Of a DNA stretch of 64,000 nt, positions 6,901-50,488 are shown in pieces. The stretch lies in the NCBI RefSeq assembly GCF_963676685.1, contig NC_092356.1:35774001-35838000 (forward strand), read 5' to 3'. The notes under the pieces are model-generated. The model did not search any database. It was given only the letters and a program-made list of their open reading frames with translations, and was not told the DNA's origin. The position numbers were made by a program, and so were the translations under genes. Each line of letters starts with the position of its first letter. Within the stretch, counting starts at the first letter, position 1. Origin of the DNA: Mytilus edulis (taxonomy: Eukaryota).

Positions 6901-9900
6901 TTCTACAAGTAAACAAGAAATTCAACGTCTTTTTCCATCTATAGCATGAAATCAAACAGAACTAAAAAGGTTCAATTGCAGGAGGTCGCTATCTATTAAT
7001 TGATATGTCTATGTTTATATCGTGTAATGTGACCATCAATAGTCTTCGAAGATCATCATAATGGCTACTAAGATGCTGTAAAGACTAAAATACTTACCAA
7101 TGCGAATATGTAATATCGAGTCTTGTTAATTGTTTATTGCAGACTATAATTTGAAATAATATAAATCAAATATGAGCTATTGAGTCAAATTGCTAAGCAC
7201 TAACGCAACAGTTAAATAAATGAGTACTTTAAATAGAATTAAAGAAAAATAATTATGGTACAAAAATCAATGATATGCGAAAACAACGATTTGTTTTTGT
7301 ACATACAAATGTATATGTTGCATCACATCATTGTAAATCCTGTCAAAGTTTTATGACCCCGTTCAAACTAGGGACCTTGTCAATGATTGTCTTTTGTTAT
7401 ACTTTAAATGGTTTTTAAATACTCTCCTCCCAATTTAAACCTTCTGTAACTCCCACGGATTTTCAGAAGGTGTTTATTGAATTATGCTCTAAATTTAAAT
7501 AGCCCCAAAACATTGTTTGAAAACTTGTATTTCAAAGACAGTTTTAAATCTTAACTATTCAATAGACTTTTCATACTGTATAACATAATTCTTATTTTAT
7601 ACAATTCAAATTCTTAACATCGTTTGTAAATGTTTTCATGTTTTGACGACTTTCAGTTTTCCATTCGTGCATTTACCATTAAAATCCTTATATTCTAATA
7701 ACTTATTATTTATTGATGTCCTTTACACGATCTAACATGAGGTAAATCTTTCAGCAAAGTCATAAGACATGAGAGAAGGATTGGAACTGCTCAAACAGAT
7801 TTTGACTTTGCCTATCATCTTACATGAAATAGGAATAAAGTCATATTAGAATCAGGTTTTACTTATTTATACTATATTCACCATGATCGTATATGTTTCT
7901 AATATCTTAGTTTAATTCTGTTAAAGTGCGACGTAACCACGTTAGCTATATTCAAAAGATCTTCCTTCGTATGGACTGTTGACACTATTGTATCGTTCTC
8001 TTTTTCTGATATGACACAATTGTACAAAAATGCCATGCGAAAGCCAAAAATGAAAATTATTACTACAAAAGTGTGTGAAAAATAAAATTACAAAAATATT
8101 GAACTCCAATGAAAATCTAAAACGGAAAATCCCTAATCAAATGGGAAATCAAATGTTTAAACACATAAAACGATTAGACAACAACTGTCATATTCCTGAC
8201 TTGGTACAGGTATTTTCAAATGTAGAAATTAGATAGACACATAATCATTGATTAAGTAGCAGGGAATTCATTTTTTTTCATATAAATATTTACGTATAAC
8301 CTGCTTATAGCATTGAAAAAAGATTAGCTTGATTTTGCTCTGACTCATTGCAGTATAAAGTAGTTAAAGACCAAACTAACATATGCCTATTTTAATTTTT
8401 CCGTTAACTAATGAACTCTTAATTGTTTTTATTGTTCGTTACGTTTAAATGAAATAATGTCTTTACTTGGAGAATTTTGATTCGCCTCGGTTTCAAAATC
8501 TTTCATAAAGTTTTACTCGAATTTTCCCTAAAATTCGAAATTGATTCGGGCAATACGACGGATTTTACATGTTGAACATGATCTGCTTACTCTTACTTAG
8601 CATCTGAGACGACTTCCCGTAAATGGAGGGGTTCGTGTTGGTAACGCTTTTCATGTCTTTTTATGCTATTGTTTATCTTTTGGTCCATAATCGTATTTTA
8701 CCACTTTCAGTTCTGTTTCAAATAATGAGTTTTACTTTGAATGTCGTTTGTATTATTCGCCTTTCGTTTACTTCACAACTGAAATTGGAATGGTACTTGA
8801 AATTGTTATATCACTTATAGACAATGAGTTGTTTTGTTTTATTCGCATGGAAGTTTTGGAGAAGAAGAATTATCAATTTTTGAAGTGTTCAGATATACAT
8901 CTACATCTGGTGAAAATGCACAAACGAACTCAACTACAACATGTACAATATGTCTAAACTACGCCGACAAAATATGTTTAGACTCGATGGTATCTAACAT
9001 CCGGCAGGATGACGGAACATCATTAGACAGAGAAATGGTAGGTTTCTGCTTATTTCTTTATTTTATTTTTTAATATCGAAGAATGTATATGCATATACAA
9101 ATATTTTCTATTGTGAGATGTTATATTTTCTACAAGCGTTCTAGATTTACGGAGATATCAGTAAAAATGCATGTCAAAATAACGAATTGAGCGAACCTTG
9201 CCTCGAATTTGTTTAATTTCTTGTTATATTATTCCCATTTTACAGAAAAAAAGTACAGAAAGAAAGATATTGACATGGTTTTTGCAAAACTAATCACTTT
9301 GATCACCTCAATACTTGTAATTCTGTGTTTATGGAATGCAAGAAATTGGTCATGTCAAAGTGGAATAAACCGGTTTTTTCAATGTGTACCACCCGGTTTT
9401 GTCCTAGATTTCACAATGCATAGCTTTGTTTTGTCAAAGAAAAAAAACCAATAATCGTATTGACAATTCTACTTCAGCGTTAAAAAGGAGTTTGGTGGCT
9501 CGTTGGGAAATGAATTCTTTCAGAGGACATTCTTATTATTTATTTGAATCTCAGATCAAAATGAATAATAAGTAACATTTAAAATTCGAATTTATTCATG
9601 CTATTAAAACAAGTATCATGCATTTAAAAAAGATTTTTATAACTAATGGTAACTTCAAACTAAGTATAAATATATCATAATTCTGTTGGTTTTTTTTTTA
9701 AAATAAATTGATAGATAATTGATTGGTATAATCATTTGAATCTTGTTTTGCCATTTCAAATCATGCAATAATCAAATTGATTAAGATTTCTACATTTCAT
9801 AGAAGGTGATTGTGATCTATCATATGATTGTGATCTATCATAAGTTTCAATTTAACATCAAACATGTCATATTCTGAAACATACTTGTGGAAAGCTAGAT

Positions 9901-11680: not shown

Positions 11681-12060
11681 TATAGATATAGGAAGATGTG
11701 GTGTGAGTGCCAATGAGACAACTCTCCATACAAATAACAATTTAAAAAGTAAACCATTATAGGTTAAAGTACGGCCTTCAACACGGAGCCTTGGCTCACA
11801 CCGAACAACAAGCTATAAAGGGCCCCAAAATTACTAGTGTAAAACCATTCAAACGGGAAAACCAACGGTCTAATCTATATAAACAAAACGAGAAACGAGA
11901 AACACGTATATATTACATAAACAAACGACAACTACTGTACATCAGATTCCTGACTTAGGACAGGTGCAAACATTTGCAGCAGGATTAAACGTTTTAATGG
12001 ATCCAAACCTTCTCCCTTTTTCTGAAACAACAGCATAACATCACAACAAAGAAAAAACAT
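11681..12060 (-). mobile_element. Family E short dispersed element (about 380 bp) carrying a twister motif
   Basis: AAGATGTGGT..GCCAATGAGACAACT end, also seen near 2170, 2368, 16873, 33490-33738 (inverted), 38626, 48578, 58186-58437 (inverted) and 58580. Confidence 0.75.
11942..12025 (-). ncRNA. Twister ribozyme-like motif, type-P5 permutation (repeat family E)
   Basis: Minus strand reads TCAGA aaaa GGGA GAAGG tttggatccattaaaacgtt T^AA TCCT GC TGCAAAtgTTTGCA CCTG TCCTAAGT CAGG aa TCTGA. P5, P2, P3, P4 and both pseudoknots pair; P1 is atypical. Confidence 0.75.
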
Positions 12061-15479: not shown

Positions 15480-16872
15480 GTCCACATTAACACTATATCT
15501 CATGTTTACATTAACTTATTGTTGTCTCATCGACACTGTGTTTGGTCTACGTTTACACTATATCTTATGTTTACATTAACGTATTGTTGTCTCATCGACA
15601 CTGTGTTTGGTCCACGTTTACACTATATCTCATGTTTACATTAACTTATTGTTGTCTCATCGACACTGTGTTTGGTCCATGTTTACACTATATCTCATGT
15701 TTACATTCACTTATTGTTGTCTTCTCATCGACACTGTGTTTGGTCCACGTTTACACTATATCTTATGTTTACATTCACTTATTGTTGTCTCATCGACACT
15801 GTGTTTGGTCCACGTTTACACTATATCTCATGTTTACATTCACTTATTGTTGTCTCATCGACACTGTGTTTGGTCCACGTTTACACTATATCTCATGTTT
15901 ACATTCAATTATTGTTGTTTCATCGACACTGTGTTTGGTCCACGTTTACACTATATCTCATCTTTACATTCACTTATTGTTGTCTCATCGATACTGTGTT
16001 TGGTCCACGTTTACACTATATCTCATGTTTACATTCACTTATTGTTGTCTCATCGACACTGTGTTTGGTCCACGTTTACACTATATCTTATGTTTACATT
16101 AACTTATTGTTGTCTCATCGACACTGTGTTTGGTCTACGTTTACACTATATCTTGTGTTTACACTAACGTATTGTTGTTTCATCGACACTGTGTTTGGTC
16201 CACGTTTACACTATATCTCATGTTTACATTAACTTATTGTTGTCTCATCGACACTGTGTTTGGTCCACGTTTACACTATATCTCATCTTTACATTCACTT
16301 ATTGTTGTCTTCCCATCGACACTGTGTTTGGTCCACGTTTACACTATATCTTATGTTTACATTAACTTATTGTTGTCTCATCGACACTGTGTTTGGTCCA
16401 CGTTTACACTATATCTCATGTTTACATTCACTTATTGTTGTCTCATCGACACTGTGTTTGGTCCACGTTTACACTATATCTCATGTTTACATTCAATTAT
16501 TGTTGTTTCATCGACACTGTGTTTGGTCCACGTTTACACTATATCTCATCTTTACATTCACTTATTGTTGTCTCATCGACACTGTGTTTGGTCCACGTTT
16601 ACACTATATCTCATGTTTACATTCACTTATTGTTGTCTCATCGACACTGTGTTTGGTCCACGTTTACACTATATCTTATGTTTACATTAACGTATTGTTG
16701 TCTCATCGACACTGTGTTTGGTGCACGTTTACACTATATCTCATGTTTACATTCACTTATTGTTGTCTCATCGACACTGTGTTTGGTCCACGTTTACACT
16801 ATATCTCATGTTTACATTCACTTATTGTTGTCTCATCGACACTGTGTGGTCCACGTTTACACTATATCTCAT
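15480..16872. repeat. 65-bp tandem array, about 21 copies, with 588-bp higher-order structure
   Basis: Unit GTCCACGTTTACACTATATCTCATGTTTACATTCACTTATTGTTGTCTCATCGACACTGTGTTTG. 68-bp variants near 15720 and 16308. Confidence 0.97.
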
Positions 16873-19094: not shown

Positions 19095-22000
19095 TCAATT
19101 CGCCAATAAAGGTTTAGATGCTGTAAATATTAGCAATATTTTCCATCAGAAATCTGTACAAAAATCTATACCCGATAACTTCAAAAATAAAGCTACACCT
19201 GTTATTTCTTATATTACAACAAGTCTATTGCATCCAAGATTTTCAACCACAAGATGTTTTTAGAGGCCTTTAACCTCAAGGATCGTGAAATCCAAACCTC
19301 CGGATTGCTCATGTGCATCGTCACAATACAATTATAGTCCAGCTGGTCATGTTATTACTGGTGACCTTGGCATCGTTATCAATGAACAGCTAAGAGAGTT
19401 GTTAGCCAAAGACTAAAATATAGAATTCCCCAGCCCATCAACTGGAAAAAGAACTGTAAGTTACTGATGGATGCAGTTGAGGACTATGCAAGAAAATGGG
19501 TAAAGCGCGAACCAGACAAACCAGAACTGCACACTTTGTCTGAATGGATCAAAGCTATTCGATCATGCATTCAGAAGCGCATTAAAAAACTACGATGTAC
19601 TATGAGCACAAGAGTTACTAACCCTTTCAATACTCCGGATGTTGTGGATGCTTTATCCGTTTTGCATGACAAATATGTCGTTGTTCCAGCAGATAAAGCC
19701 TCCAATAATATTGTCTTCATATGTAAAAACCATTATTCATGTTATTTGCAATGTCTCACAACAGAGCTTGGAATAAAGATAATTACTGGTAATCCTACAT
19801 ATTCTTTAACATCATTTACCAAGGACGAAATTTTACAAAATCACATTTTTTTTCCTTCTTTCTTTTGGTATCAATATCAAAGAAAACGATACATAGCTGG
19901 GTCATCAAAATGTTAGACTAAACATTTTTCTAAAGTACTGACTACTATTCTTTCTACAGTTAAAGATGGGCTACAAAAATATTGTGATGAGATATATTCT
20001 ACCAGTGGTGTTAACCAGATGTGGATTATCAAAAATTCGAAAGATCTACTGCTTAATCTTCGATCACAATCTTTGCAATTTTGCAGCAACATAAAGACTT
20101 TTGATTTTCTACGCTTTACACTACTATTCCCCATGCTCAGTTGAAAGATCGACTTCACCATCTCATTAAACAGAGCTTATTCTATTAAAATGGGAATCGT
20201 AGATACAAATTTCTTGTTTTGGGTTAACATAATTCATATTTTGTGAAGAACCACACGGAATCTTCCAGAAAATATACTGTAGATGATATTATCAAAATGC
20301 CGAACTTTTTGATCGACAATATATTTTTTTAGTTTGGAGGATTTATATTTCAACAGACAGTCGGTATTCCAATGGGTACTAATTGTGCACTCCTACTGGC
20401 CGATTTGTTTTTGTACTCGTATGAAACAGAATTCATTCAGAACCTTCCAAAAGACAAAAAGAAAAAGCACCTTGCGAAATTCATTTATTTTACTTTCCGA
20501 TATATTGATGATGTCCTATCATTGAATAACCCATATTTCAGCCAATACTTACATCTCATATATTCCAGTGAACTTGAAATTAAGGATACTACTGATACTA
20601 GAAGGACTGTTTCATACCTTGATCGTTTCCTCAATATTGACACAGATGGACGACTTCCCACGAAAATCTATGATAAACGGGACGATTTCAACTTCCCAAT
20701 TATCAATTTCCCTTTCTCAGCAGTAGCATACCCTCTGCCCCTTTGTATGGTGTTTACATATCTAAATTGATACGTTATTCTCGTGCATAGTCCCACTATA
20801 CGTACTTCATATACAAGAGTGTGCTCCTAACGCAAAAACTGCTCTAAACAGTTATGAGGAGGACAGATTAAAAATGACACTCGTAAATTTTACGGACAAC
20901 ATCACGAATTGGTTGATCCATACGATGTGTCTTTGTCCAAACTAACTAAGGACATTTTTACCACGTGTTAGATTGTGGTTTGTCATTACGTCGTCTGATC
21001 TTTTGATTCCCGAAAGTGACTTATTCCCGATTGTGACTGTTTTGCTGAGTGTGAATTCGCATTGCTATAAGACGTGTCACGGTACTTTTCTATCCCAAAT
21101 TCATGTATTTTTTTTTTTATGTTATTTTTGTTATTCTCATCGGATTTTGTCAAATGTCTTAACGTTTGTAGTTGTAAATCTTATTATTTTCTGTTATATT
21201 CGTGTGTTATGGTAAAGATAATTAATCACCCGGTTCATTTGTTAGATTTTAGTTTGGGTCAACGAAATTTATACGATGGGTTTGGTTTACAGTTTGATTC
21301 GGAAGAAGCACCAACATGGCTAGAAGATGCAGTTGATTGTCTGATTACTACCACAGTTTGATATTGATTAGTATTGTGGTTTTTGTTGTTGTTGATAAAT
21401 GTTATATCGGTGTTGCAAATCTAATCTTGAATTCTGTCCTATTTCTATCTTGCTTTTTGGGAAGTTTTTTTTAGAAATTCGAATGTGACGTCGATTTGTG
21501 CGTTGATGGCTTTGGCTAACTCGGCTGTGTATTTTTGTGTGCTGGTTTGGGTTGTTTTATGTGATGTGTCCGTTTTTATTCTGTAGTTAGTCGCCACTTC
21601 GGTTTTATCATGTATATCTATTATCTAGTCATTTTATAAAATTTACTGTTTGCAAAAGCGTGAGTTGTTCTAAATAATAAGGATGTTCTTGTCCCGGGCA
21701 GAGGATCCTGGCCGTATTGGGCACAACTTTTTCGGAACTTTTGGTCCTCAGTGCTCTTCAACTTGTACTTATTTTGGCTTTCGAACTTTTTTCATCTGAG
21801 CATCACTGGTTAGTCTTGTGTGGACGAAGCGCGCGTCTGGCGTATTAAATTTTAAACCTTGTACCTTTTGTTAGCTATTATTCGTGTGTTTCTCTGTCCT
21901 ATATCTTCTCCCATTTATTTGTATTGTAGTCCTGTTATGCAATGTTGTCATTTTAATGTTATATTTAACATTGCCATAAAAGCGGGTGGTTTGGCATGCC

Positions 22001-22245
22001 ACAAAAACAGGTTCAGACCACCATTTTTTCCTTAAAATGTCCTGTACCAAGTCAGAAAAATGGCCATTGTTATATCATAGTTTGTGTCTGTGTTTGTTAC
22101 ATTCTAATGTTGTGTTTCTGTTGTGTCGTAGTTCTCCTCTTATATTTGATGTGTTTCCCGCAGTTTTAGTTTGTAACCCGGATTTGTTTTTGTCTCAATC
22201 GATTTATGAATTTCGAACAGCGGTATACTACTGTTGCCTTTATTT
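19095..22245 (+). mobile_element. Decayed Naiad-type Penelope-like retroelement (5'-truncated) with a long 3' region
   Basis: Frameshifted ORF about 19095-20970: [26 protein letters not shown] (CxC at 19306-19314), VPADKASNN, RYIAGSSKC, MGTNCA.LLADLFLY, FRYIDD, KIYDKRDDF. No C-terminal GIY-YIG. The 3' region ends GCCTTTATTT. Joining RT and tail into one element is inferred from adjacency and from shared sequence with 39697..40760. Confidence 0.78.
21972..22065 (+). ncRNA. Degenerate type-P5 twister motif (family A)
   Basis: P5 GCCAT/ATGGC, P3 CATTTT/AAAATG and the loop CCTG TACCAAGT CAG are present. GAGG is changed to GTGG and TAA to CAG. Confidence 0.55.
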
Positions 22246-25329: not shown

Positions 25330-28300
25330 AAGTAATAGATGATTACCTTGATGGAGGGTTGCTGTGTACAATAATAATGGATCAGTCACCGTACTTAATA
25401 TAATAAACTTTTGATTCCAAAAGTTCTTTGCAGGGGTAGTTAAGACACTGCATATTCATCAGCTCAAAGTGTAATACTATTGATAGGAATAGAGGGTTAT
25501 TGCATGTTTATTGATAAATATAAATGTACCGAGGAAGAGACATTTATACTACTCTAGGTTGCGAGCTCAGTATATATCCTACGAGGTATCATATTCACAA
25601 ATATTCGTTATCCGTATTACTCCCTCTTGAGCTTCTAATAAGTTTAATTTATTTATGTTTATTCTGTTCTGTCAAACCATAAATTTCATCGTGCGTCAAA
25701 GCGTATTGTATATAAAGGTAAAAATTTAGAATAATTGTCAATGATAATTCTCCACCAAAAACCAACTGAAAAAGAAGTTAACAACTATAGGTCACTGTAT
25801 AATCTACAACAGTGAGCAAAACCAATTAAAGTCATCGAGAAATGTTGACCAGTTCAAAAGAGAAAATTAGCGTCTGGATTTGTGTACAAAATATTGAAAG
25901 ATAAATATATATGATATACAGCAACAAACGAAAACTACTGAATTGACTCGGTGGAAATGTTAACAAAAGTCTTCGAATTGGCAATCGTTTTGTTTATTTT
26001 TTGCTGCTGTTTAAAGTATGCATTGAAAGACTTTTGTGTGACTTCCATCGTTTATCACTTTTCATGTCCGTCTGTTCTGTCGCCTATTTATTAAATTTGT
26101 GTTAACTTTTGCTGATTTGAATGGCTTCACATTTGATCAAAACTTTACAGTAAATCGAATTTTTCTACTCTAGGGATAATTCTGTTTGCTTATACTTTAA
26201 ATGGTCTAATATGTTAAACAGACTTCTATTGTTTTAGCATGCGAACGAGTGCAACTTCTTGTTTTATGTGCTACAGATTTCTCTACGTATAGCTGTTTTT
26301 TTAAGATTGATGAAATGTGAAATGACGATTCACTTTGAATAATAGTCAATGCATTAATCTATTTAATTTATCAATTTAAAATGGCAGTATTATGTGTTAC
26401 GCATATCCTCTTAATTTGCCATTTGTCCATCTGTTCTCAATATAGGTTTTTTACATCTTTATCTTCATCCATTTAGCTTGCCTTTAGCGACAGCATATCA
26501 AAGTTCAAAAAGGTTCTTATCACTGTTACTATAGATGATAAGAATTTAAACTAATCAATGAAATTGTATTTTCTTATAAAACGAAAATTTTCTACATTTG
26601 AAAATGCTTGTACCAAGTCAGGAATATGAAAGTTGTTCTCCTTTTCTTATTTGACTTTGCCATTTGATTATGGTCGTTCCGCTTGAATTTTCCTCGGAGT
26701 TCAGTATTTTTGTGATTTTATTTTTTTCTATTTTAACATTTAGTTTTGTTGCAATGTGTAAATATTATAATTTATCAATTGAATGATGAGGATAAACTTT
26801 TAAATGCTAGCATATATCATTTTTAAAGCTACAACATCGACGCGGTCATCAACTGTTGAACACACGAAAAAACAGCCAAATTTAATGATAGAATTTAAAA
26901 CACATAGGTTACGCTTACAGTATAGTCTTATCTAAGTTAGCGGAACAGTTTTATCTTCAAAACTACATTGCTATCCAAATCTTACAGGGATGTAATCATC
27001 TTCAAGAAGATAATTTATCTGCTCTTCACCGATTTTCAAATCGTATATAATCTGAAGTGTAAAGGAATGTATGATAAAGCTTTTTATGGAGTTATTATAT
27101 TCAAATATGTTACATGGATAGATGTTCCTAGACACGAAGTACAATATAATGACAATTAGGTAATTATTTATACATGTTAAACGCTTAAATGGTGTATATA
27201 ATTGTAAAGAGTAGTTTTCTAAATATTTACAATTATTAATGCTCAGTTCAAATACACAGTTCTTTTTCTAGCAAGAACTTAAAGATCAAAATACGATGTA
27301 AATCTCAAACATTCGTATATATCTTTCGACTTGCAGACAGTCTCAAAGATCATTGGATAGGAATGCAAGTTTTTGACATGTTAAAAACAATATTTCTCCA
27401 AGTTAGTATCGAAAACCGCTCATAAACCGAAAGCAACAATAATTTACCATCCGAAAACTACTCGAGGGAATCACCAATTCATGCCAATTGTTTTCTTGAT
27501 TTGTAGTTCTGTCAGTTTCCTTTTTCGTACAGATAATTAATTGATTGTCACAAATGCTTGCATATTGTTCACGATTTCATTCTGGTGATGTTAGGATGAC
27601 TTGACGGATTGAAAAAATAAATGAATTCATAACGTGTAATTACGAACAATTTACAAAAAGATGCGTATACTTTACACATTCTTATGGACTGTTTGCGATT
27701 TAGTAAATGGTACAAGCGTGGGGAAAACGTAAGACTTGTAAATACTCGTAACTAACACGAAACCATTCAAAATAACACATTGACAGGTCGTGATGAGCAC
27801 TTTGAAGCTTCGATGAATCGTTTTTAACAAGAGGTCTTGAAACTAAGGTTACTACATACGGAAATAATATCGGCGAATTAGAGTATAAGTTTAGAAAATG
27901 TATAGTAAATAATACTTTCTACTTAATTTAGATGAAAATGGTATTAAATTATGCCAAAAAAAAAGAAAGGTAACAGCACGATATTTATTAAACTCAATAG
28001 ATGGTACAGTGTGGTATACGGCAGCTTATAAAATAGATTTTACCCGTTATGTAACACAGAAATGCAAGATGAACTCCATTTCGTAACTCTCGAATGAACA
28101 TTCTAAATGTAATTCTGATATTTTGTCTAGTTTCATTTTTATGAATAATAATAAAAAAAAAATTTCATATGAGAACAAATATGACAAACTGATGATTTTT
28201 GTAAATAATACGAGTAAAATGTACAATAACAGGAACAACATTAACAATAGTGGAAAAAATGTGTAAAGTATGGTTTTATATGGATACTTTTTGATTCTTT

Positions 28301-28440: not shown

Positions 28441-28690
28441 AAAAGTAAAATCACAAAAATACTGAACTTAGAGGAAAATCAAATTCGGAAATTCCATAAT
28501 CACATGGCAAAATCAAATAACAAAACACATCAAAAACGAATGGACAATAACTGTCATATTCCTGACTTGGTACAGGCATTTTCAAATGTAGAAAATGGTG
28601 GATTAAACCTGGTTTTATAGCGCTAACCCTCTCACTTTGATGACAGTCTCATCAAATTCCGTTATATTTACATTGATGCGTTAACTAAAA
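28441..28690 (-). mobile_element. Family D short dispersed element carrying a twister motif
   Basis: AAAGTAAAATCACAAAAATACTGAACT end. Partial copies at 8080-8228, 26588-26722 (inverted), 47955-48137 (inverted) and 52480. Confidence 0.72.
28550..28647 (-). ncRNA. Twister ribozyme-like motif, type P5 (repeat family D)
   Basis: Minus strand reads ACTGTCAT caaa GTGA GAGGG ttagcgctataaaaccaggtt T^AA TCC AC CATTTTctacatttgAAAATG CCTG TACCAAGT CAGG aat ATGACAGT. Confidence 0.7.
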
Positions 28691-31600
28691 CACATAAGAT
28701 CATTTGTCTGTTTGTGAATGCAACACATTTTTAATTATTTATTTGTGTTACCAAAATTGACGGTTGTATAAATATCTCTTAATTTATATCATGGTTTTCG
28801 ATTGCTACATATGATATTAGTTCGGACTTATGTTCAATCCAGGTAAATTAATTTTGAATAAAGAACAAGGACACACGATTGAATGTTAACACATAAAATA
28901 TTTCAAGTTTAAGATACTCGATAAAACAACTGATAACGGCCTACCTGTAAAGATTTATGATATCGTGAAAGAAAATATTTCCTGTCATCAAGTATTTGAT
29001 AGGAAGGTATGTATACGCACACACATAAAAACTTTTTGTTAGATATGTATTGTAGCAAAATGAAGCTTTGATACCAAACATTTTTTGGTAATTCTTGAAT
29101 AACAACGCGCACCGAAAAGTAATGGTATATAAATCCGTTTTACGTTGAATTATTTTATAGACTCCATAATGCATAATGTGTCCATAGATTAGAACATACA
29201 CGTATTATCTAGTACAAATGCAATATTTTTTTCATTTATTGATTTTTATTCCGAAACAAAACTTCAAAATTTTAGTCAGAACATATGTTTTCAGAAATCT
29301 CTTTATTATATTTGTTTTGAGGGGAGGAGGATAAGAAGGCACTTTTGTTTATGTTATCCTTACTCTGAGGAAAACATATAAATCTTTATATCTTTCATAC
29401 GTGTATTTATTTCAGACTTGAATGCTTCTTTTTGTAACTTCATTGGGATGTAACAGTGTTGCCCAAAGTACAAAGTACCGCGGCAGCGCTTCATTCTACA
29501 AATGTGCGCACGGTCAACACTTTTACAACCCTATGAAGTTTAAAAGGAAGCATTCAATATTAATAATTACATTTTTTTAGCTAGGATAATGAGAACACGA
29601 TTTTTATCAAGTTTTATTTAATTTACCTGTGCACTTTATTTTTGGACCTCCTGTCATCATGAATGGTAAATTTTATTGTGTAATGTAGTTGATTAAGGAA
29701 TAACGCGAGATTGCAGTGTAGCCAATAAGAATAACGTATTATAAAGACACATACATGTTATGTAATAGTTCTATATTAAAATTTATTTTTTGTAAAAAAA
29801 ATAAAATTACCGTGTGTATTTGGAGCTCAGAATCACAAGATGTGACCCTGGATTATAAAAGTGATCAATGTTGCAGTTTAACACTACAATAAGTCCTGTC
29901 GTGAGTCCTTATTACTTGGCATTAATGGAATGCATTTAAACGAAGCCACGTTCGGTTATCTTTTTTTTTATTTGTCATTGCATACAATTTATCAGTAAAA
30001 TGCAAAAAAATGAAAACACATTTTTTTTTAATTTTGATCTGGAAACTGTATTTTGCTCATAAACATGCTTCGGTTCAAAATTAAAATTCCATTGTATTCA
30101 ATTTGTAAATAATCCTAGATTCCGCCGTCGCTGGATGCGTCAACATTAAGGTTCAGTCAGTGGTTAGATAGTTTTTAGACATCAATTTCTGTGTCAAACC
30201 TTCATGGAATTTAAATAAATTTGAACAGAAGCTAGGTTATAAGCAAAATACATAAATATATTTTACTGAAAAAGGGCTTTTTTGTTTTGCCGTTAGTATT
30301 CAAATAAGAACATATTTTTACATTTAACAAATAAACACAGTCTGGTGTAAAAGTGTAATACACTAAGTCTTGTGTTCTAATCGTAACTTCAATTGAACAT
30401 AAAACATTTTTTGATATAATACAAAACTCTCACATGGTACTAGCCACTTTCAGACGTCAAGCGCAGTTTTATTCAGATAATAAGTGCACGTAATTTCATT
30501 TTACATCACTGAGCATTGTTTGTCTCTAAATAGAACATCAGTATTTGTGACAAATCTTGATCAACCAACATGTAAATAAACCTTTTTCATAATTATTTAT
30601 TCCGAAAAAAAGCCTGTAGCACACTTGACTGCAAGGAATCGAATGATTTAAACTACTATCAAATATCCGTGCATAAAATTCTACCCGTATATCTTTATTT
30701 ATCCAATCAAACAACCCTATCTACAAAAAGCATAACCCCGTTTTCCTTGAAACACAACAAACTTGAATCGATATATATATACATTTTTTTTTAAATATAG
30801 TTATGCGTAACCTCAACAGTACATTAAACATTTATCAATATAAAACAAAATTATCCCATGGGAGTAGCCACTAGCAAAAGTAAAGTACATTTTAGGGGAA
30901 AAAAACAACGATCGGGCAAGTATTTGATCATTTTCTAATTAAAAATTCCCAAATTTTGAGTTATAATGTTTTTCTTTACATACCACCCTGCCATGTTTTT
31001 TAAACTCTCTATCTGATTATCTGACATGTATTAAAAGTAAACTCTGCATACTGAATGTATAGGAGGTCCAGCCAATTGTTGTCACCCTTCCATCTACGCC
31101 TGAGGAACCTGGTGTATACAATCTAAAATTGAATAATGAAATTTTCTTTTTTTTTTTACTGTCGACAAATCTATCAACTGAATAAGGTTTATACATATAC
31201 ATGTATAATCTTTAAATTGAAAAAAAACCTCAACACTGACACCTTAATCGTCAAAATCGAAAATCTTACTTATGGCATTTGCTTTAATGTTTTCCTCTTT
31301 ATCTATATATCCATTAAATATTTATATTAATAAAATTCTTTATAGATTTTTCTATATTAACTAAAAAACCAGCATCAATTATCGTCTGTGCCACGAAAAC
31401 AAAATCGAAATAGAAAAAATCGAAATCAAAATTAGAACCTATACCATCATCTAAATATAAAATCATACGGAGACTATTTTCAACTTAAACTTAACTTACG
31501 GCAGTAGACATTTTGTGAACACATATAAACTAGAAGACAAGTCGAATGGTAATATTGTAAACATGCAAAATTTTTCTTCCCATGAAAAACTTAGGTAGGT

Positions 31601-34776: not shown

Positions 34777-35087
34777 AGTTATAAACCACTACATTTCAAT
34801 ACATTCAGTTGCTATAATGTGTTGCCACTATGTGTATTAAAACCCAGATCGTAATCATTTTGAAGGCTCGTATACAGACAACTGTGTATATTGCTTACAT
34901 CTTATGTACCAGTAGCATTGTATACCAGTTAAATTATTTGTGCTCTGCATCAACGCAGCCAAACACAACTGGTCTTAAATAGAAGTGTTTATTTCTATAT
35001 CTGTCAAAATGTACATACAATTAGATTCAATGGATCTAATTATGACAGTAAATAAATCCTTTTCTTTTTTTATCATAGAGTTGAAAT

Positions 35088-36758
35088 ATGGATATTAATG
35101 ACAAACAAGATCTTTGCAGTCCATGTGAATACCAAAGCAAGACAACACTAGCTACACAATGGTGCATCGACTGTAAAGAGCCTCTTTGTGTTAGCTGCTA
35201 CGGGAACCACAATGCACACAGATATTCAAGGAACCATCATGTAATATCAATAGAAAGCAACAAAATGCTACAGTCCTTAAAGATACCTCTAAATGAGTAT
35301 TGTGAAGCACATGATCAAGAAAAAGACTTGTACTGTTCCTTCCATAACGAGATTATATGTCTGACATGCACACAGACTACTCACGGGAAATGTGTACCAG
35401 CTGTCCGTTTGAGTGAAGTCAGTAAGAGCGCCAAAACGTCGACGTTCGTCTCAATGTTAGAAACGAGTTTAGTTGAGGTTGTCGATAAATTAAGTGTAAT
35501 CATAAGAGAAAGAGAAACTAACAAAGCAAAAATTGAAAAACAAAAAACTCAAATATTCGAAACAGTTAAACATTTTAGAAAATGTATAAACGATAAGCTA
35601 GACCAGGTAGAAAATGTTATACTTGAAGATTTAAATGCAAACTTGGAAAAACTTAACCTGCAAATCGACAACAATGTTCATTTTCTTAACGATCACCTAA
35701 ATGAGTTTGATGAAATACGAAAAAAGATTGATATATTAAAGGATAATGCGTCAGATACGCAAACTTTTATAGGTGTAAGAGCTCTCGAAAAAGTATTTCA
35801 TTACAAAGAGGTTAGGCTTACATCATTTTTAGAGTTAATCCAAAACCTCAACATTGAGTTTGAGGTGAATAAAGATATATTTGTTGCGTGCGCGGATATC
35901 AGGTCATTCGGTGATATTCGAGTGCAAACATTAGATACCGGTTATTTTAATTTCCTGAAAAACAGAGGACAATACCCTATTAACCGTCAATTAAAACTAT
36001 CCAAAGCATTAGAAATCAAGATACCCCAGGAATCTTTTTTTAGAAGTATCATACTAAGTTGCGTCATACTTCCGAACAAACAGATGATTTGTGTAGACTC
36101 ACATGCTCGTAATAAACGATTGATAGCTTTTAATGAGGATGGAAGTCATGATCGCAATATCAACTTGACCAGTAAACCATTTGATATCGCTGTGATTGAT
36201 GATAACAAAATTGCCCTGAGTTTTCCATGGAGTGCTCGCAAAAGAATAGGAATAATAAATATGAGCAATTCAAAATTGGATCCCGACATTTTGTTAAAAA
36301 ACAAATGTTATGGTATTTCATACGATAAAGAGAGATTGTTTGTCGTCGTCAAGACTGAAGGGATTTTGATAATGGACTTGTGTGGACAGGTAAGCGCATG
36401 TTTACCGATTGAAGGACAGGAAATATTCTATGTTCACGTAAAAAATGACAGAATTTATTGTTCTGACGAATGCAATGACACAGTACAGTGTTATGATATG
36501 GAAGGGTGTTCTATTTGGACATTTAAAGATTCCAATTTAGAATCACCAAGATCAATTTCAGCAGACGATAAATTTATTTTAATAGCAGGATGCAAGACAA
36601 ATAATGTTGTGTCAGTTTATTTGGATGGAAGTTTGGCCAGAGTTATTTGTGACTCGGACGACGGGATAAATAATCCAACAAGTATATATTTTGATTCACA
36701 AAATCTTTTAGTATGCAATTCTTCAAATGCACAGGCATTTTTGTACAAAGTAAATTAG
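35088..36758 (+). CDS. RING-less TRIM-like B-box/coiled-coil/beta-propeller protein, 556 aa, copy 2
   Basis: Intact ORF, colinear with and the same length as 13495..15165. Same Cys/His pattern and same acceptor 9 nt before the ATG. Confidence 0.93.
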   Translation: MDINDKQDLCSPCEYQSKTTLATQWCIDCKEPLCVSCYGNHNAHRYSRNHHVISIESNKMLQSLKIPLNEYCEAHDQEKDLYCSFHNEIICLTCTQTTHGKCVPAVRLSEVSKSAKTSTFVSMLETSLVEVVDKLSVIIRERETNKAKIEKQKTQIFETVKHFRKCINDKLDQVENVILEDLNANLEKLNLQIDNNVHFLNDHLNEFDEIRKKIDILKDNASDTQTFIGVRALEKVFHYKEVRLTSFLELIQNLNIEFEVNKDIFVACADIRSFGDIRVQTLDTGYFNFLKNRGQYPINRQLKLSKALEIKIPQESFFRSIILSCVILPNKQMICVDSHARNKRLIAFNEDGSHDRNINLTSKPFDIAVIDDNKIALSFPWSARKRIGIINMSNSKLDPDILLKNKCYGISYDKERLFVVVKTEGILIMDLCGQVSACLPIEGQEIFYVHVKNDRIYCSDECNDTVQCYDMEGCSIWTFKDSNLESPRSISADDKFILIAGCKTNNVVSVYLDGSLARVICDSDDGINNPTSIYFDSQNLLVCNSSNAQAFLYKVN

Positions 36759-39696: not shown

Positions 39697-40760
39697 TAAA
39701 GGCAACAGTAGTATACCGCTGTTCAAAATTCATAAATTCATGGACAAAAAACAAAATCGGGGTAACAAACTAAAACTGAGGAAAACGCATTAATATAAGA
39801 GGAGAAAGACGACACAACATTAAAATGTAACACACACAGAAACGGACTAAGCATTAGACAAAATCCTATGAGAATAACAACTATAACATCAAAACCAAAT
39901 ACATGAATTTTTGAGAGATAAGTACCATGACACCTCTTGTAGTAATGTGAATTCACACTCAAAAATAAGAGAAAACAAACGACACAACGGAAACACAACA
40001 TTAAAATGTAACACACACAGAAACGAACTATAATATAACAATGGCCATATTCCTGACTTGGTACAGGACATTTTTAAGGAAAAAATGGTGGGTTAAACCT
40101 GTTTTTGTGGCATGCCAAACCTAACTCTTTTATGGCCATGTGAAATATAACATTAAAATGACAACACAACATTACAAGACTACAATATAAGTAAATAGGA
40201 GAACACAATTGACAAAGAAACACACGAATAATAGCCAACAAAAGGCATCAAGTTTAAAAATTTTAATACGCCAGAAGGGCATTTTGTCCACACAAGACTT
40301 ACTAGTGACGCCAAGATACAAAAGTTTGACAGCCGAAACAAGTACAAAGTTGAACAGCATCAAGGACTAAAAGTTCAAAAAAGTTGTGCCAAAAACGGCC
40401 AGGGTTTTCTTTTAGGTACCAGAACATCCCTATTATTTAGAATAATTTATACTTTAGCAAACAGTAAATTTTATAAAATGACTATACAAAAGATGTACAT
40501 GATAAAACTGAAGTATTAGCTAATTACAGGAAGCAACCGAAATACATTACATAACCCGACAAAATGCAGCACATCCAAATAAGTTTAAACCTCATCGCCA
40601 AGTGACGTCATATTAGAAATTGTAAAAAATGACAACAAAAACAAAATGACGTCTCATTTGAATTTGTAAAACAGATCATCAAAAAATGAAAAAGACGTCA
40701 CATTGGAATGAATAAGATAGAATTAGGATTGATTTAAGATTATATTTGAACTAAATACTG
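39697..40760 (-). mobile_element. Non-autonomous family-A element (retrozyme-like segment, twister relic, Naiad-like tail)
   Basis: Homologous to about 21480-22245 and 21050-21170. Boundaries defined by the empty paralogous site at 50986-51005. Confidence 0.75.
40041..40139 (-). ncRNA. Degenerate type-P5 twister motif (family A)
   Basis: 9-bp P5 ATGGCCATA/TATGGCCAT, TAA CCC ACC, P3 and CCTG TACCAAGT CAGG are intact. The putative general-base G is changed to T. Confidence 0.6.
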
Positions 40761-41613: not shown

Positions 41614-43562
41614 TTAATAACACTTCTCTACGAAATGTGTTATGGAAAGGTCCGAAATATCGTGAGCCTAAATCCATCAATTGGAAATACAACTTTAAAA
41701 TTTTGATGGATTCAGTTGAGGATTATGCCAGACAATGGGCTAAGCGCGAGAAGGAAGACGTAGACACTCTTTCCGAATGGATTAAGGCAGTGAGGTCGTT
41801 GATACAAATTAGAATTGAGAAACTGAATGGGTCTATCAATGTCCATGCTATGTCAATCTTTAAAGACCCAAATGTTGCAAAACACCTATCCTACCTCCAT
41901 GGCAAATATGTTGTTGTCCCCGCAGATAAAGCCCCAAACAACATCGTTTTTGTATGTAAAACTCATTACATTAACTGCTTGATAAACGAATTAGGTATTG
42001 ACAATTCACTTGGAAACTCAACATATACCCTCACGACACTTACCAAAGAGGAAATCCTGGATAATCATAGGTCTGTTCTGTGTTCCTTTGGAATTTCAAC
42101 CAAAGATGAAGAACTGGAACTGCCATCACTGTATTGGATACCTAAACTACATAAGTGTCCTTACAAACAACGGTATATTGCTGGGTCTTCCAAGTGCTCC
42201 ACGAAACCTCTTTCTAAATTATTAACATCTATTTTATCAGCAATCAAAGACGGGCTTCCAAGTTATTGTGAAACTGCCTATTCTAAAGGGGGCGTGAATC
42301 AGATGTGGATACTTAAAAATTCCAAAGATCTTTTAGAGTACATACAATCTAACTCTCTTTCATCTTGTAACAGTATTAAAACATTTGACTTTTCTACTCT
42401 GTACACTAGTATTCCACATTCCAAACTAAAAGACAAATTGAAAGAGTTGGTATTGCTTTGCTTCGTAAAAAAGAATGGCCAACGTAGATACAGGTATCTT
42501 GTCTTAGGGAGGGATAAATCCTACTTTGTAAAGGATCACTCTGATTCGAACAAAAAATCCTCTGAAACTGATATTATCAAGATGCTTGATTTCTTGATTG
42601 ACAACATATTTGTTACGTTCGGAGGACGTGTTTTTCAACAGACTGTCGGCATTCCAATGGGAACAAACTGTGCCCCTCTACTTGCCGACTTGTTTCTTTA
42701 TTATTATGAGGCTGACTTCATGTAGGAACTTCTTAGGAAGAAAGATAAGAAGTTAGCAATATCCTTTAACTCTACTTTTCGCTATATAGATGATGTTCTT
42801 TCACTAAATAATTCAAAATTTGGTGACTATGTGGAACGCATCTATCCAATTGAGCTAGAGATAAAGGATACTACAGATACAGTTAAGTCGGCCTCATATC
42901 TTGACTTACATCTAGAAATCGACAATGAGGGTCGGTTGAAAACAAAACTTTACGACAAAAGATATGATTTCAGCTTTCCAATTGTGAACTTTCCATTTCC
43001 ATGATTTCTAAGTGGCAACATTCCAGCAGCACCTGCTTACGGGGTATATGTCTCCCAATTGATACGATATTCCCGTGCTTGCATTTCCTATCATGAATTT
43101 CTTGATAGAGGGTTGCTGCTCACAAGGAAGCTATTGAACCAAGAGTTCCAAATGGTGAAGTTGAAATCATCCCTTCGTAAATTTTACGGACGCCATCACG
43201 AGTTGGTTGACCGATATGGAATAACCGTTTCACAAATGATATCGGATATGTTCCTTACGTCGTAACTACAATCCCCTTAACTTTCATGAATGTGACCTAC
43301 CAAATTAGACTATTTCCCGGATTTGTTATCACATAAGCAACACGACGGGTGCCGCATGTGGAGCAGGATCTGCTTACCCTTCCGGAGCACCTGAGATCAC
43401 CCCTAGTTTTTTGGTGGGGTTCGTGTTGTTTATTCTTTAGTTTTCTATGTTGTGTCGTGTGTGCTGTTGTTTGTTTGCCTTTTTCTTTTTTGCCATGGCG
43501 TTGTCAGTTTGTTTTAGATTTATGAGTTTGACTGTCCCTTTGGTATCTTTCGTTCCTCTTTT
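41614..43562 (+). mobile_element. Naiad-type Penelope-like retroelement, 5'-truncated, near-intact RT
   Basis: One frame 41637-43265 with only TAG at 42723 and TGA at 43002. Motifs KGPKYRE, LYWIPKLHK, TFDFSTLYT, QTVGIPMGTNCAP, FRYIDD, LRKFYGRH. About 300-nt 3' tail ending CCTCTTTT. Confidence 0.85.
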
Positions 43563-45226
43563 ATTCCACCGGAAAGGAACCAGTTATCAACATCCTGTAG
43601 AAAATCTTGTACAGTATTGCAATTCCTAAATAGTTGTTCTATAGACTCATTATCTGATTTACAAAATGTACATAAAGGATCATCAGTCAATTTTATTTTC
43701 ACTAAATACTGATTTTTGGCAATAATGCAATGGTTAATCCTATATTGCAACCACTGTAATTTACTATTTTTAGTAACAGCAAAAGGCAGTCTGAAAATCT
43801 TTTTCCAATTCAGATTCTGGTCACCTAAAATTTTAACCCACTTAAGCTGTCCAGTAGGAATAAAATTAGTTCTTGTCAGTACAGAATACATATCTTTTGA
43901 TCCTTTACAATGTTTTATAAATATTTGTAAACATGATGGTATAAAAGGACAAACTAATTTGTAAGATCCTTTAGGGAAAAATTTTAATGCCTCTTTCACT
44001 GCCGAAATAACACTGTAAAATTCAAGAAAATCTGGGTTAATGTTATATTTTTGCTTAAATTGGTCAAATGAAATAGACGATTCATTTTGGTGAACTATAT
44101 CATTTACAAATCTAATACCACTTTTGAACCATTCTTGATAAATTACTGATTTATGACCAATCTTAATATTATTATTCAGCCATAGTGGATTTGATAAAAA
44201 TGAATCATAAGTAAAATTTCTTTCTTTTTGAATAATCATTTCCCAGGATATTAGTACATCTTTCCAAAAATGGTTGTTAACTGTCATATACAGTTGTATA
44301 ATATAATCAACACCACAACTAACATGACTAAACAACTTTCTTTTATCTATATTTGACATGAAAATATTTTGCCATTTACTATCACTCTGCAAAATCCTCC
44401 TAATCCATGTTCATTTAAGTGCTGTAATGAACATATTCAAACCAAGTATTTTCAAACCTCCCTCCAAATAATCTTTGATTAGAATATCCTTCTTTACTCT
44501 ATGTATAGGTGAGTTCCATATGTATAAATAAATAAGTTCATTTATTCTCTTAATAATACCATCTGAAGGATTTGGCAGAGAGATAATGAGATGGTTTACA
44601 ATAGGCAAGACTAGAGTTTTAATCACAGTTATTCTACCTATAACAGTTAGATTCCTTATTGACCATTGATTTAAAGTATTTTGAATCTGTACAATTCTTT
44701 CAGAATAATTTATCTTAACAATTTTTTCAAGATCTACATCAAAATTGATTCCGAGTAATTTAAAAGAAGTTTCACCCCAGGACAGATTTCTGTTAGGGCA
44801 TAAAGTATCTGTACTATATCTTTTGCTCCCAAACCAAATAACTTTTGTTTTTGTGAAGTTAATATTCAGTCCAGATATTTTTGCAAACCAGTCTAATTCT
44901 AATAATGATTCTTGTTAAGATTTTTCACTCCCATCCAAGATCAAAGAGGTGTCATCAGCAAATTGTGACAATTTATGCTCAACCCGTGTGTCCTCTACAC
45001 CACTAATGTCACTATTTCCCCTTATTTTCAATGCCAGAATCTCAACACATAAAATAAAAAGATATGGAGACAGGGTCACCTTGTCTACAACCTCTTCCAA
45101 TAGTAAAAAAATCTGAAAGGTCCCCCCCCCCCCCTGGATGACAACAGAGTTGATATTTTTGTAAAAAACTTTAACCCAATTGATGATAGATTCGCCAAAA
45201 TTGAAAAATTTCAAAACATTTATCAA
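43563..45226 (-). mobile_element. L1/Tx1-like LINE ORF2 fragment (RT and C-terminal Zn finger), decayed
   Basis: LSPYLFILCVEILA, KLSQFADDTSLILD, GRITVIKTL, WLQYRINH, CTFC..ESIEQLF..C, with stops and frameshifts. Confidence 0.85.
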
Positions 45227-47538: not shown

Positions 47539-49875
47539 TTGTTCTATATTTTATTATTTTCTGTATATATAACTATTGATTTGATAATATATATTTTGTT
47601 AAATAAGTTGTAAATAAAAAGAATATCAGTAATCACAAACACTACCGCTTATTATATTTATTATTTTGCTTCAGGCCAAACTCATATTTCCTTTGTGCCC
47701 ACAAGATATTGACGCATACTCTTCAATAACTCAATAACACGATGTACGTGAATTGAAACATAAATGCACATGAAAATGATTGAAGTTTCTGTTCTGACGT
47801 TTTCGTAAGAAAAAGTGGTTGCCGATGAAATAACTATACAACACAGTCAAAATAACGTTAATTTAATTAATAAAACATGAAGTACAACGCCCAGAACCAA
47901 AACTGTACACTCAGCTAAACAGATCCCGACTCAAAATAATTTGAATGCATAACAGCTAGCTATTAATCATGTTTAATCCACCCTTTTCTACAAAAAAAGA
48001 CTGTAACAAGTCAGGAATGTGACAGTGGTTATCCATTCGTTTGATGTTTAATGTGCTTGAGCTTTTAATTTTGCTATTTTTTTTAGGGACTAACCGTTTG
48101 AATAATCCTTTCAGTCCGGTATTTTTGTGATTTTACCTCAGACCACTAAATCAAAGTACGTCATGTCCAGATGCTTACGAATAAGGGTCCTTTGAATATT
48201 ACAGTTTTAGTTAATTAATCCTACATTTAATTGCAGTATAAAATGTCTCAGTCATTAATATATATCGTGGGTGTTCAAAGCACCATTATTTCTTGTTGGG
48301 TGTTTCTATCAAGCATTTTGGAAACTTACGGTTACATGGTTTCTCAAGCTTGTACACAGAAAAAAGAGGTGAACATTTGATTGGTTGATTTCCAGTGATT
48401 GTTATTATCTTATATGTTATGAATTGTGATGTGAAATTTTGATTGCAGTATAAGACAGGATAAAACTTTACTCATTCCATTCATTTTTTTTTAAATTTTC
48501 ACACAAAGATAGATTCTGCATAGACGTATGGGGGTAAACAATTGGCGTATTACACCTGAAATAGAACAAACAAATAAGAAGAGAAGTGGTATGAGTGCAA
48601 AAAGTCACAATGTATGCAAAAAACACACAATTAAAATTACAAGTACAGCCTTCAACACAGAGCCTGCATCAATCGGAACAGATGGCTATAAAGGGCTCAA
48701 AATGACTTGCGAAAAACAACCCAAACAGGAAAATCAACTGTCTTGTGTGTGTTACATTTTAATGTTGTGTCGTTGTTCTCCTCTAATATTTAATGCGTTT
48801 CCCTCAGTTTTAGTTTGTTTCCCCGATTTTGTTTTTTGTCCATAGATTTATGAGTTTTGAACAGCGGTATACTACTGTTGTCTTTATTTGTCTTTATAAA
48901 TAAAACCAAACGAGAAACAAGTCACCTTTACTAACAAACATACAAAAATACTAGACTAGGGTATCAATCAGAACATATTCAGTGGATGAAGCATAGAGAC
49001 GTCTTAAAAACAGTACCAGAAAAACATGACCTTGAATTTAATTTGAACTTTTAATTTTTTTAAATGTTGTAATATTGATTGCAGTATTACAAAATGTTTA
49101 ACGAGATCCATGAACTTTTGTATCAGTTTTTAAAAAGTGTCAATTCAACCGGCCTGAAAATTATCGATATTCAAAATTCATAAAAGACTGGTATTCATGT
49201 ATTTATGGCAACAACCGTGCCAGTTGCTGATTTTTTTAGTTTTTTTCAGTTTTTTTTTCTATATCGTAATTGACTTTTCTTCACGAGATTGTTGAAAATG
49301 AAATATTACCTTGTTGATTAATGTACAGCTTGACTGTTAATACCTTAACATATGGTATTTAAACGTGTTCGATGTAGAACTTTTTAAATGTTTGTACTAA
49401 ACAAAAACGAATACCAAACAATGGAACAGTGCTGTAACTGCTGCTCCTCATGGAGAAAAATGGAAAACACAACAAACTCACTGCGAGTTCAAAACGGTCT
49501 TTAACATCAGTTTTAGAAAAATTCAATGCAAAATGTCGAATTTTAAAAAGAAACTTTAGCAAAAACATCAAAGCCTTTGCGATACAAATATTTAAGAAAG
49601 CAACTTTTAGCCCGGAATATACAGTATACAGAATAAACATAGAATTCCGACAAACGTGTTAAAGAGATAATTGCATCAGCAAAACTAAAGAGCAGAAAAC
49701 AGCAGAAGGCCACCAATGGGTCTTCAACTAAGCTAGCCAATCTCGCTTCCGAAGGCTGTCTCCAGCTTTTCCCTAAACAAAAAAGTTCAAGGAAAATAGA
49801 CGTGACACCCAACTCCAAAATGATATATAAACCAAAATAATAATAAAAAACCCAACATACAAGACTAACAAAGAC

Positions 49876-50488
49876 TAGAGGTTCCTGACTTGTGACAAGC
49901 ACAATAATGCGAAGGGGTTATACATATGTTGAGATCTCAAACATTATTTAGTTATCTTGGTGTAATCAGGGGTGTACAGAATTTTACACCGTTGTTGAAA
50001 ATTCAACAACGGTGTAAAATTCCGTACACCCCTCATTACACCAAGATAACGAATGTATTTCTTATGAACAATTCCTTTAGTCATTTTGAAACCAGGACGT
50101 AAAATTGTAAAAATGGTAATGAAAAACTTCCAGCGTAATATTATTTCAATGTCCATGTTGCTGCACATTGTCAAATACTTTTTACTTTATGTTTGGAAAA
50201 ATTCTGAAAATTTTTGTGTTCTTTTGAGTTTACAAAAAAAAAATAAAAAAAATATTTAAAAAAAATTTTTTTTTTTTTTTTAGCATTTTCTTCTTATTAT
50301 TTTTTTTCTATATTTTTTGAAAATTAAATTTTTTATTTTTTTTTGGCAAAATTTAATTTTTTTAAAAATTTTGGCAAAATTTTATTTATCCCCGGGTGAA
50401 CAAGGGTGGGGTGCTATTTACACCGGGGTAGTCAACCAATCAGATTGCAGTATTTTTGCTGCATAAGAAATAATCTCTTATACCTCTA
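49876..50488 (-). ncRNA. Degenerate type-P5 twister motif (family C) split by a hairpin element
   Basis: Minus 49943-49876 reads tgagatctca..TAA CCCC..GCA..GC TTG TCACAAGT CAGG aa CCTCTA. The matching P5 strand TAGAGG lies at 50483-50488, beyond the 49944-50473 insertion. Confidence 0.45.
49944..50473. mobile_element. Long-hairpin non-autonomous element
   Basis: 100-bp palindrome 49951-50050 (49-bp arms, 2 mismatches), 11-bp inverted repeat 50056-50066/50462-50472, CCAATC at 50436. Confidence 0.65.

Follow-up and report, generated by a model that had tools for sequence, protein, structure and literature searches.

The type P5 permutation of the twister ribozyme is reportedly due to Roth et al. 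2014, and minimal or palindromic type I hammerheads of Penelope-like elements and retrozymes are said to have been covered by Lunse et al. 2017. Type P5 twisters are described in PMC5408937 and PMC10085705 and belong to Rfam clan CL00120. Twisters with a poor P1 or none are known from retrotransposons, namely, the T-variants of Perere-3 in Schistosoma mansoni (PMC8501958) and the truncated RTE twisters (PMC7761336). As presented in these papers, they are of the P1 type and lie at the 5' end of the element, where the target site provides the 5' strand; the word "palindrome" is absent from the main text of both. In other Penelope-like elements, helix III of the hammerhead is palindromic and a second copy is needed, single motifs being uncut and tandem ones cleaved weakly (PMC4209133). 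For retrozymes, release of units with ligatable ends has been described (PMC7229834). Naiads are among the most abundant retroelements of bivalves and, in the account of Craig et al. 2021 (PMC8557442), are without the canonical hammerhead that other Penelope-like elements carry; why they lack it was left open, and hammerheads were suggested to be possible parasites. The first-pass annotation of the present locus had cited as precedents the dimeric palindromic hammerheads of Penelope-like elements and the tolerance of twisters for loss of P1, and both are indeed in print (PMC4209133 for the former, PMC5408937 and PMC11662667 for the latter).

The Naiad motif described here resembles each of these systems in part. 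Similarly to the Perere-3 and RTE twisters, it is a retrotransposon twister with a poor P1 or none; unlike them, it is of the P5 type, forms part of a Penelope-like terminal repeat and encodes its own linker. With the type I hammerheads of Penelope-like elements and retrozymes (PMC4209133, PMC7229834), it shares the place in the element and an unstable palindromic terminal helix. However, these hammerheads have one short palindrome and another ribozyme fold, whereas the Naiad motif has two longer palindromes; for the hammerheads dimer activity was proposed or shown, and the Naiad motif is likened to them by sequence and calculated energies. The word "twister" is absent from the text of PMC8557442 and from the parts of its supplement text that were searched. 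A search of mainly open-access literature gave neither a link between twisters and Naiads nor any report of a twister in a Penelope-like element or of a twister that is naturally a dimer; bivalve candidates in the supplement of PMC11662667 may include such motifs. P1-poor retrotransposon twisters being already known, what appears to be new here is the twister-type core in Naiads together with its two conserved palindromes.

The motif was studied in a 64-kb window, i.e., the whole stretch of DNA that was analyzed (Table 1). On the minus strand at 28647-28550, we observed, in order, a P5 strand, CAAA, GUGA, GA, GGG, a 21-nt linker, U^AA, UCC, AC, a P3 hairpin, CCUG, U ACC AA GU, CAGG, AAU and a second P5 strand. 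This order matches that of a twister ribozyme opened at P5, and the stretch is, on the modeled structure, a twister-type core with this opening and a predicted self-cutting fold. The coordinates and palindromes of the first-pass annotation were all found in place, as were its G 28631, its U^A at 28605/28604 and its short bulged P2 (UCC with G[U]GA, U 28634). The general-base role of G 28631 is taken from known twisters (PMC11662667). Palindrome 2 ends with the nucleotide that precedes the predicted cut. An A.G mismatch in T1, G28627 facing A28571, had gone unmentioned, as had the P5 permutation, the location in a Naiad terminal repeat and the solitary, truncated state of this copy; among the 30 nearest family D copies the T1 strand is GGU in 12 and GGG in 17, and the full-length element L282 also has GGG. 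No complete partner on the same strand was found near the window copy within the 64 kb. Being solitary and truncated and having a T1 mismatch, this copy would probably have low cleavage activity.

Table 1. Positions of the motif parts and of further motif copies in the 64-kb window
Feature	Position	Strand	Remarks
Family D Naiad pseudo-LTR fragment, 5'-truncated 3' end, ~250 bases	28441..28692	-	91-94% identity to L281-L283 terminal repeats
P5 5' strand (ACUGUCAU), opening point of motif	28640..28647	-	pairs with 28557-28550
P2 3' strand G[U]GA, bulged U 28634	28632..28635	-	
G at general-base position and next A of L1	28630..28631	-	GA is family majority in D, A, C, E
T1 strand of L1, GGG	28627..28629	-	2/3 pairs with ACC in window copy
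Palindrome 1, U-AGCGCU-A (TAGCGCTA, 28625-28618)	28618..28625	-	self-duplex -12.5 kcal/mol, no hairpin
Palindrome 2, A-AACC-A-GGUU-U (AAACCAGGTTT, 28615-28605)	28605..28615	-	self-duplex -8.6 kcal/mol
Predicted cleavage site U^AA, between 28605 and 28604	28603..28605	-	alignment to Rfam twister-P1 consensus
P2 5' strand UCC	28600..28602	-	
T2 strand of L2 (AC)	28598..28599	-	pairs with GU 28566-28565
P3 hairpin	28577..28597	-	predicted fold of window copy; sequence varies by family
P4 (CCUG/CAGG) and L4 (U ACC AA GU)	28561..28576	-	P4 invariant 12/12; Rfam twister-P1 positions match
P5 3' strand (AUGACAGU)	28550..28557	-	
Family E copy	11935..12032	-	its palindrome at 11998
Family A copy, general-base position mutated	40038..40142	-	its palindrome at 40108
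Second family A copy, decayed, CAG at cut site	21967..22070	+	its palindrome at 21992
Family C copy, 5' half of core replaced by other sequence	49870..49950	-	its palindrome at 49930
Decayed D-type copy with palindrome AGCTAGCT	47941..48029	+	
Partial D copy	26567..26636	+	
Partial D copy	8181..8287	-	

Judged by its sequence, the window copy represents the 3'-terminal ~250 bases of a Naiad Penelope-like retroelement, truncated at its 5' end. It is 93.6% identical to the repeat of L282, with the same GGG form of T1. All four main families (D, E, A and C) include copies with a reverse transcriptase (RT) C-terminus upstream of the motif, and in most of 40 scored family D matches the RT end is joined to the motif without a break; neither of two RT C-terminal fragments gave a Pfam match. 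In full-length D elements, frames of 1053 codons encode a GIY-YIG domain at the N-terminus, the CxC, GPKF and DKA motifs and an RT. In L281, Pfam placed GIY-YIG at residues 179-269 (E 1e-6) and a weak RVT_1 at 822-903, and the CxC, GxKF and DKA motifs could be read in the translations of L281-L283. GIY-YIG, CxC, GxKF, DKA and RT are the diagnostic features of Naiads as described in PMC8557442. L281 and L283 each carry two motifs, one per terminal repeat, which lie 4110 and 4113 bases apart, respectively; the terminal repeats of L281 are 555 bases long and identical. In L282 and L284, the frame is open and the 5' repeat is shortened, all or half of its motif missing. The element resembles Naiad_Mgal as published (PMC8557442) in GIY-YIG, CxC, DKA, RT, pseudo-LTRs and 5' truncation, with a unit length of 4110 versus 4116 and a published tail that matches subfamily D2 by eye. 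This similarity, together with a match to the mussel retrozyme (see below), suggests that the genome is probably that of a mussel of the Mytilus type. The 3' ends of 29/31 family D copies fall in one 10-base bin, and their 5' ends are staggered. The genome-wide number of motif copies, fragments included, was estimated at ~1.3 x 10^5 from a 1.48-Mb sample. Many Naiad copies from several families have open frames of 1000-1056 codons, indicating recent activity.

We then compared the core between families, using the nearest loci from genome searches (30 for D and 25 each for E, A and C, drawn from 40 scored among 344, 327, 1402 and 1172 candidates, respectively). The sequences of the four families diverge and the pairings are retained: in 12 aligned representatives, 93.2% of 192 cells were paired, compared to 31-48% in slid controls. 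Eight of 16 pairs vary on both sides in these 12 copies (T1, 2/3; P2, 1/3; modeled P5, 5/6); since the aligned rows are related and P4, which never varies, yields no covariation, this is to be read as support and not as a probability. For T1, families E and C have CCU/AGG and CCC/GGG, respectively, and ACC/GGU is shared by A and some of the D copies. T2 varies on one side only: D and A have AC/GU, C and E have GC/GU, and GC/GC occurs as well. P2 takes the forms UCC/G[U]GA, CCC/G[A]GG, UCCU/GGGA and CCCC/GGGG, with 3 pairs and a bulge in D (including the window copy) and A and 4 pairs, the consensus number, in C, E, F and G; the bulge of family A is a different base at the same place as that of D, and C and E are unbulged. 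The motif agrees with type P5 twisters in the order of its parts, in N^AA, in the G-A before the T1 strand, in P2, P3 and P4, in an L4 of the form U-NNN-AA-GY with conserved U and AA, in both pseudoknots (T1 with 3 pairs, T2 with 2) and in termini that lie in P5. It differs from the type P5 twisters as described in having, instead of a P1 hairpin, a linker of 19-24 nt with two palindromes, in the three-pair bulged P2 of D and A, in its AC/GU or GC/GU T2 and in scoring under the Rfam thresholds.

For counting, we used a random sample of 148 stretches of 10 kb taken at round coordinates. A loose pattern-and-pairing descriptor, which gave 22 matches in 910 kb versus 7-11 in three shuffles, was too loose for this use and was replaced by a P4-L4 anchor (63 matches in 1.48 Mb) and a covariance model (138 matches). 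The model was built from the families, linkers included, and is thus not blind to the palindromes; the anchor is. The linker was framed at both ends in 60 of the 138 model matches, and the 78 truncated or decayed ones were dropped. The claim that there is no ordinary P1 was borne out: 0 to 2 of 4 possible pairs can form in each of the 60 framed copies, and in 53 of them the two inner P1 positions are U.U and U.U.

Rfam gave no twister match anywhere in the window at the gathering threshold or at E up to 5. On a 301-base stretch around the motif, the best of 5 Rfam matches was to twister-P1, at 19.3 bits versus a gathering score of 67.2, with an alignment running from UAA through L4; a family C copy reached 13.3 bits against the same model, and no twister-P5 row stood among the Rfam matches listed. 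The motif lacks a hammerhead core, and Rfam found no hammerhead in the window fragment. Given the low Rfam scores and the missing P1, which belongs to the three stems of the consensus although experiments showed it to be dispensable, we file the motif as a twister variant, not as a canonical member. On the modeled fold it likely works like a twister, and for young copies we regard twister-type cleavage as highly probable.

The first-pass annotation had proposed that P1 is replaced by palindromes that are specific to each family, and the symmetry is indeed kept by double changes across families. In D, palindrome 1 reads AGCGCT or AGCTAGCT, and in A it reads GGCATGCC or GGCTAGCC; family C has GAGATCTC, E and related copies have GGATCC or GGTACC, F has GGGATCCC and G has GGCGCC, the last of these forms coming from a single intact copy. 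Among the nearest copies, it was found as AGCGCT in 27/30 (D), as GGATCC or GGTACC in 25/25 (E), as GGCATGCC in 25/25 (A) and as GAGATCTC in 25/25 (C). Some details had to be corrected. In D, the 6-mer stands and the 8-mer that had been quoted does not hold to the same extent (20/30). The second self-complementary run, with AACC-A-GGTT, AACATGTT and AACGTT as its forms, is present as claimed; it is interrupted in D and A, where it reads AACC-A-GGTT (23/30 and 22/25). The form ACATATGT does occur, as a minority variant (4/25) in family C, which mostly has AACATGTT (19/25).

Conservation of the palindromes across copies was also seen in the random sample. A perfect 6-nt palindrome lay within the first 12 linker nucleotides in 48/60 framed copies versus 8.6 in shuffles, and a 6-nt palindrome or a 4+1+4 run lay in the last 11 nucleotides in 36/60 versus 10.8, with both present in 30/60; these counts are not independent, since family C makes up about one-third of the framed copies, the linker is in the model, and copies and subfamilies are related. 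The chance background per center was 0.021 for 6-nt palindromes and 0.006 for 4+1+4 runs. The length of the linker is constrained to 19-24 nt. We consider the survival of the symmetry through sequence change to be a stronger argument than the counts.

Pairing energies were computed for 9 representative copies. The linker alone folded at 0 to -1.1 kcal/mol, with 0 in 6/9 copies. In contrast to these hairpins, self-duplexes of palindrome 1 reached -12.5 to -19.2 kcal/mol, a strength matched by at most 1.5% of shuffles. Self-duplexes of palindrome 2 reached -5.9 to -8.8 kcal/mol in 8/9 copies (p 0.003-0.095); palindrome 2 was broken in the sole G copy folded and, taken alone, stood out from shuffles only weakly in families D, A and E (p 0.05-0.10). 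P1-like cross pairing gave -3.3 kcal/mol at best. Strong self-duplexes next to near-zero hairpins make intermolecular pairing the simplest reason for the symmetry, and RNA-RNA pairing through the palindromes seems probable to us. The possible intermolecular fold put forward at first reading is thus upheld in part: the core is twister-like without P1, and energies favor intermolecular pairing over hairpins. In D and A, and by eye in four published consensus sequences, the T1 strand can fold back on the 5' part of the linker's second palindrome, namely its first half; a selected off-state of this kind was considered and is not supported, as the pairing was no better than in shuffles (14-64% of which paired T1 strand and linker as highly).

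Short-motif searches of the Naiad supplement of PMC8557442, with names assigned by file order, gave a twister-like core in at least 4/54 published Naiads, i.e., Naiad_Mgal, Naiad_Bpla, Naiad-1_Movir and Naiad-4_Chem; coming from non-exhaustive searches, this number is a floor and is silent on the other 50. By eye, the Mytilus consensus (Naiad_Mgal) has AGCTAGCT and AACC-A-GGTT, that of Gigantidas (Naiad_Bpla) has GGCGCC and AATC-T-GATT, that of Morbakka (Naiad-1_Movir) has GGGTACCC and CACATGTG, and that of Clytia (Naiad-4_Chem) has GGGCCC and CACGTG. The two cnidarian consensuses show, again by eye, a CAC/GUG T1, a four-pair P2 and a G at -1. From mussels to cnidarians, these entries retain the G at the general-base position, A+1, A+2 and the two pseudoknots.

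These observations can be combined in one reading, to which we give a probability of about 0.5: the motif would be a Naiad twister opened at P5 whose palindromes pair with a second copy and whose fast cleavage depends on that partner. Each palindrome would pair with its counterpart (1 with 1, 2 with 2) in a second copy lying side by side. Joined by short spacers, the paired duplexes would hold each copy's T1 strand beside its own cut site, which is P1's job in other twisters. The two terminal repeats of one transcript would be natural partners. A transcript with both repeats would be cut to unit length, and the cuts would set free a 4.1-kb unit whose ends could be ligated, as in retrozymes; unit-length RNA, possibly circularized, or a lone copy in a host transcript would be largely spared. 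A comparable scheme is in print for the hammerheads of Penelope-like elements (PMC4209133). We put the chances that pairing gates cleavage at roughly even. Somewhat more tentative is the idea of a natural obligate-dimer twister present from cnidarians to mussels, which would act as a coincidence detector and cut only transcripts with both terminal repeats. For any such dimer, topology may be an obstacle, as both duplexes would have to form between loops that are closed.

Genomic copies and transcripts bear on this proposal. In the random sample, 18 of 29 D copies extend 5' of the cut site, indicating that templates were often uncut or re-ligated there; this is consistent with sparing of lone copies or with re-ligation. 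Insertions that start at the cut site in the manner of Perere-3 were considered and dropped, as the 31 D copies include none that begins at +1 and five that begin between +3 and +18. We further used parts (6-18% each) of four raw RNA-seq runs from two studies, for which the species label is perhaps not that of the source. Reads cover D and C in both orientations, and no pile-up of read ends was detected at the cut site in either family in the four runs. In the three runs of one study, the upward depth step over the cut site was larger in one read orientation than in the other, with 1.31-1.48 versus 1.05-1.09 in C and 1.77-1.94 versus 1.36-1.43 in D; this bias was absent from the fourth run, from the other study, and is not counted as support.

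It could be instead that the monomer cuts and that the palindromes pair element RNAs in some other way, e.g., in template jumps that give tandem or inverted insertions. Indeed, P1-less twisters were reported to cleave at a nearly wild-type rate (PMC5408937), and a large screen saw no effect of an imperfect P1 (PMC11662667), so that the monomer may be active. Moreover, a non-twister Naiad motif (see below) keeps a palindrome with double changes, no off-state appears selected against shuffles, and a depth step in one read orientation would fit cleavage of lone copies. However, that step is missing from the fourth run and could be caused by one abundant transcript of a truncated copy, palindrome 2 ends exactly at the cut with the linker held to its narrow length range, most genomic copies cross the cut site and no D copy begins at +1. 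We consider monomer cutting with pairing for other ends to be rather unlikely.

Even less probable, in our judgment, is a role of the palindromes as DNA sites or as tiny hairpins, with an RNA that is not dimeric. Penelope-like terminal repeats contain a promoter, according to PMC8557442, in which such sites could bind protein, and 3- to 5-pair hairpins of about -1 kcal/mol are predicted for A1, F and G; yet the hairpin energy is zero in most copies folded, and at least 9 different palindrome 1 sequences exist in one genome, which speaks for symmetry and against a protein site. Loss of cleavage in a twister-derived fold that serves as a structural signal only would agree with the Rfam score well below threshold (19.3 of 67.2 bits), with the three-pair bulged P2, with a T1 mismatch fixed in one D lineage and with the lack of a read-end pile-up. 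We hold this to be improbable as well, as the general-base G, A+1 and A+2 persist together with the two pseudoknots in mussels and cnidarians alike and as P2 defects and an A.G in a three-pair pseudoknot were tolerated in the screen of PMC11662667.

A twister-type motif at the position of the hammerhead suggests that some Naiads, at least, may have kept its function by means of a different class of ribozyme. Should cleavage be gated by a second copy through the palindromes, the motif would be a natural two-copy switch built on a twister, of which we found none described, and gating would account for the tolerance of ~10^5 copies within host transcripts. Penelope-like elements would in that case have acquired dimer gating on two occasions, once with a hammerhead and once with a twister as scaffold, and perhaps once more with the palindrome-bearing fold of a Naiad lineage that lacks the twister.

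This second lineage is represented in the window by a motif at 43339-43427 (+), which follows a Naiad RT fragment at 41625-43247, and by related copies near 22484, near 8550 and at 63369-63728. Neither a twister match nor any Rfam match was obtained for it in the window scan. Its fold combines a near-invariant core with an outer stem, a GGGUG/CACCU stem and a cross stem of 4 pairs that covaries (AUCU/AGAU, AAAU/AUUU, AGGU/GCCU). It includes a 10-nt palindrome, CCACATGTGG or CCGTATACGG here and TAGCTAGCTA in a published consensus, which is perfect in 11/19 random copies and has changed on both sides between subfamilies. We regard the predicted fold as an unclassified structured RNA candidate, possibly a ribozyme. 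Since the palindrome occurs without the twister, palindromes are not specific to the P1 position and are a Naiad trait beyond the twister; they may thus be an element-level pairing signal. A tandem array at L190:4600-7850 (-) consists of ~77- to 98-base units derived from this motif, with the palindrome broken.

Further features were observed in the window. A long inverted repeat at 49953-50048 lies where the 5' half of the family C motif belongs. In family A (40038-40142; loci L056-L080), the two strands of P5 share one palindromic sequence, ATGGCCAT, which makes a third element that is self-complementary. The 3' region of family A Naiads has a retrozyme-like stretch upstream of the twister (40257-40322 on the minus strand and ~21800-21870 on the plus strand), in which the core of the hammerhead is broken in most of the nearest copies. 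Two identical 355-base repeats at 10422-11142 (-), each with a type I hammerhead (33 bits), fit the mussel retrozyme described in PMC7229834. Three related segments on the plus strand (13492-15165, 35085-36758 and ~45900-47550) include two 557-codon frames for B-box zinc-finger proteins. A tandem array at 15480-16872 has 21 copies of a 65-base unit, and frames with a zf-RVT domain at 43520-44914 (-) are likely a LINE fragment.
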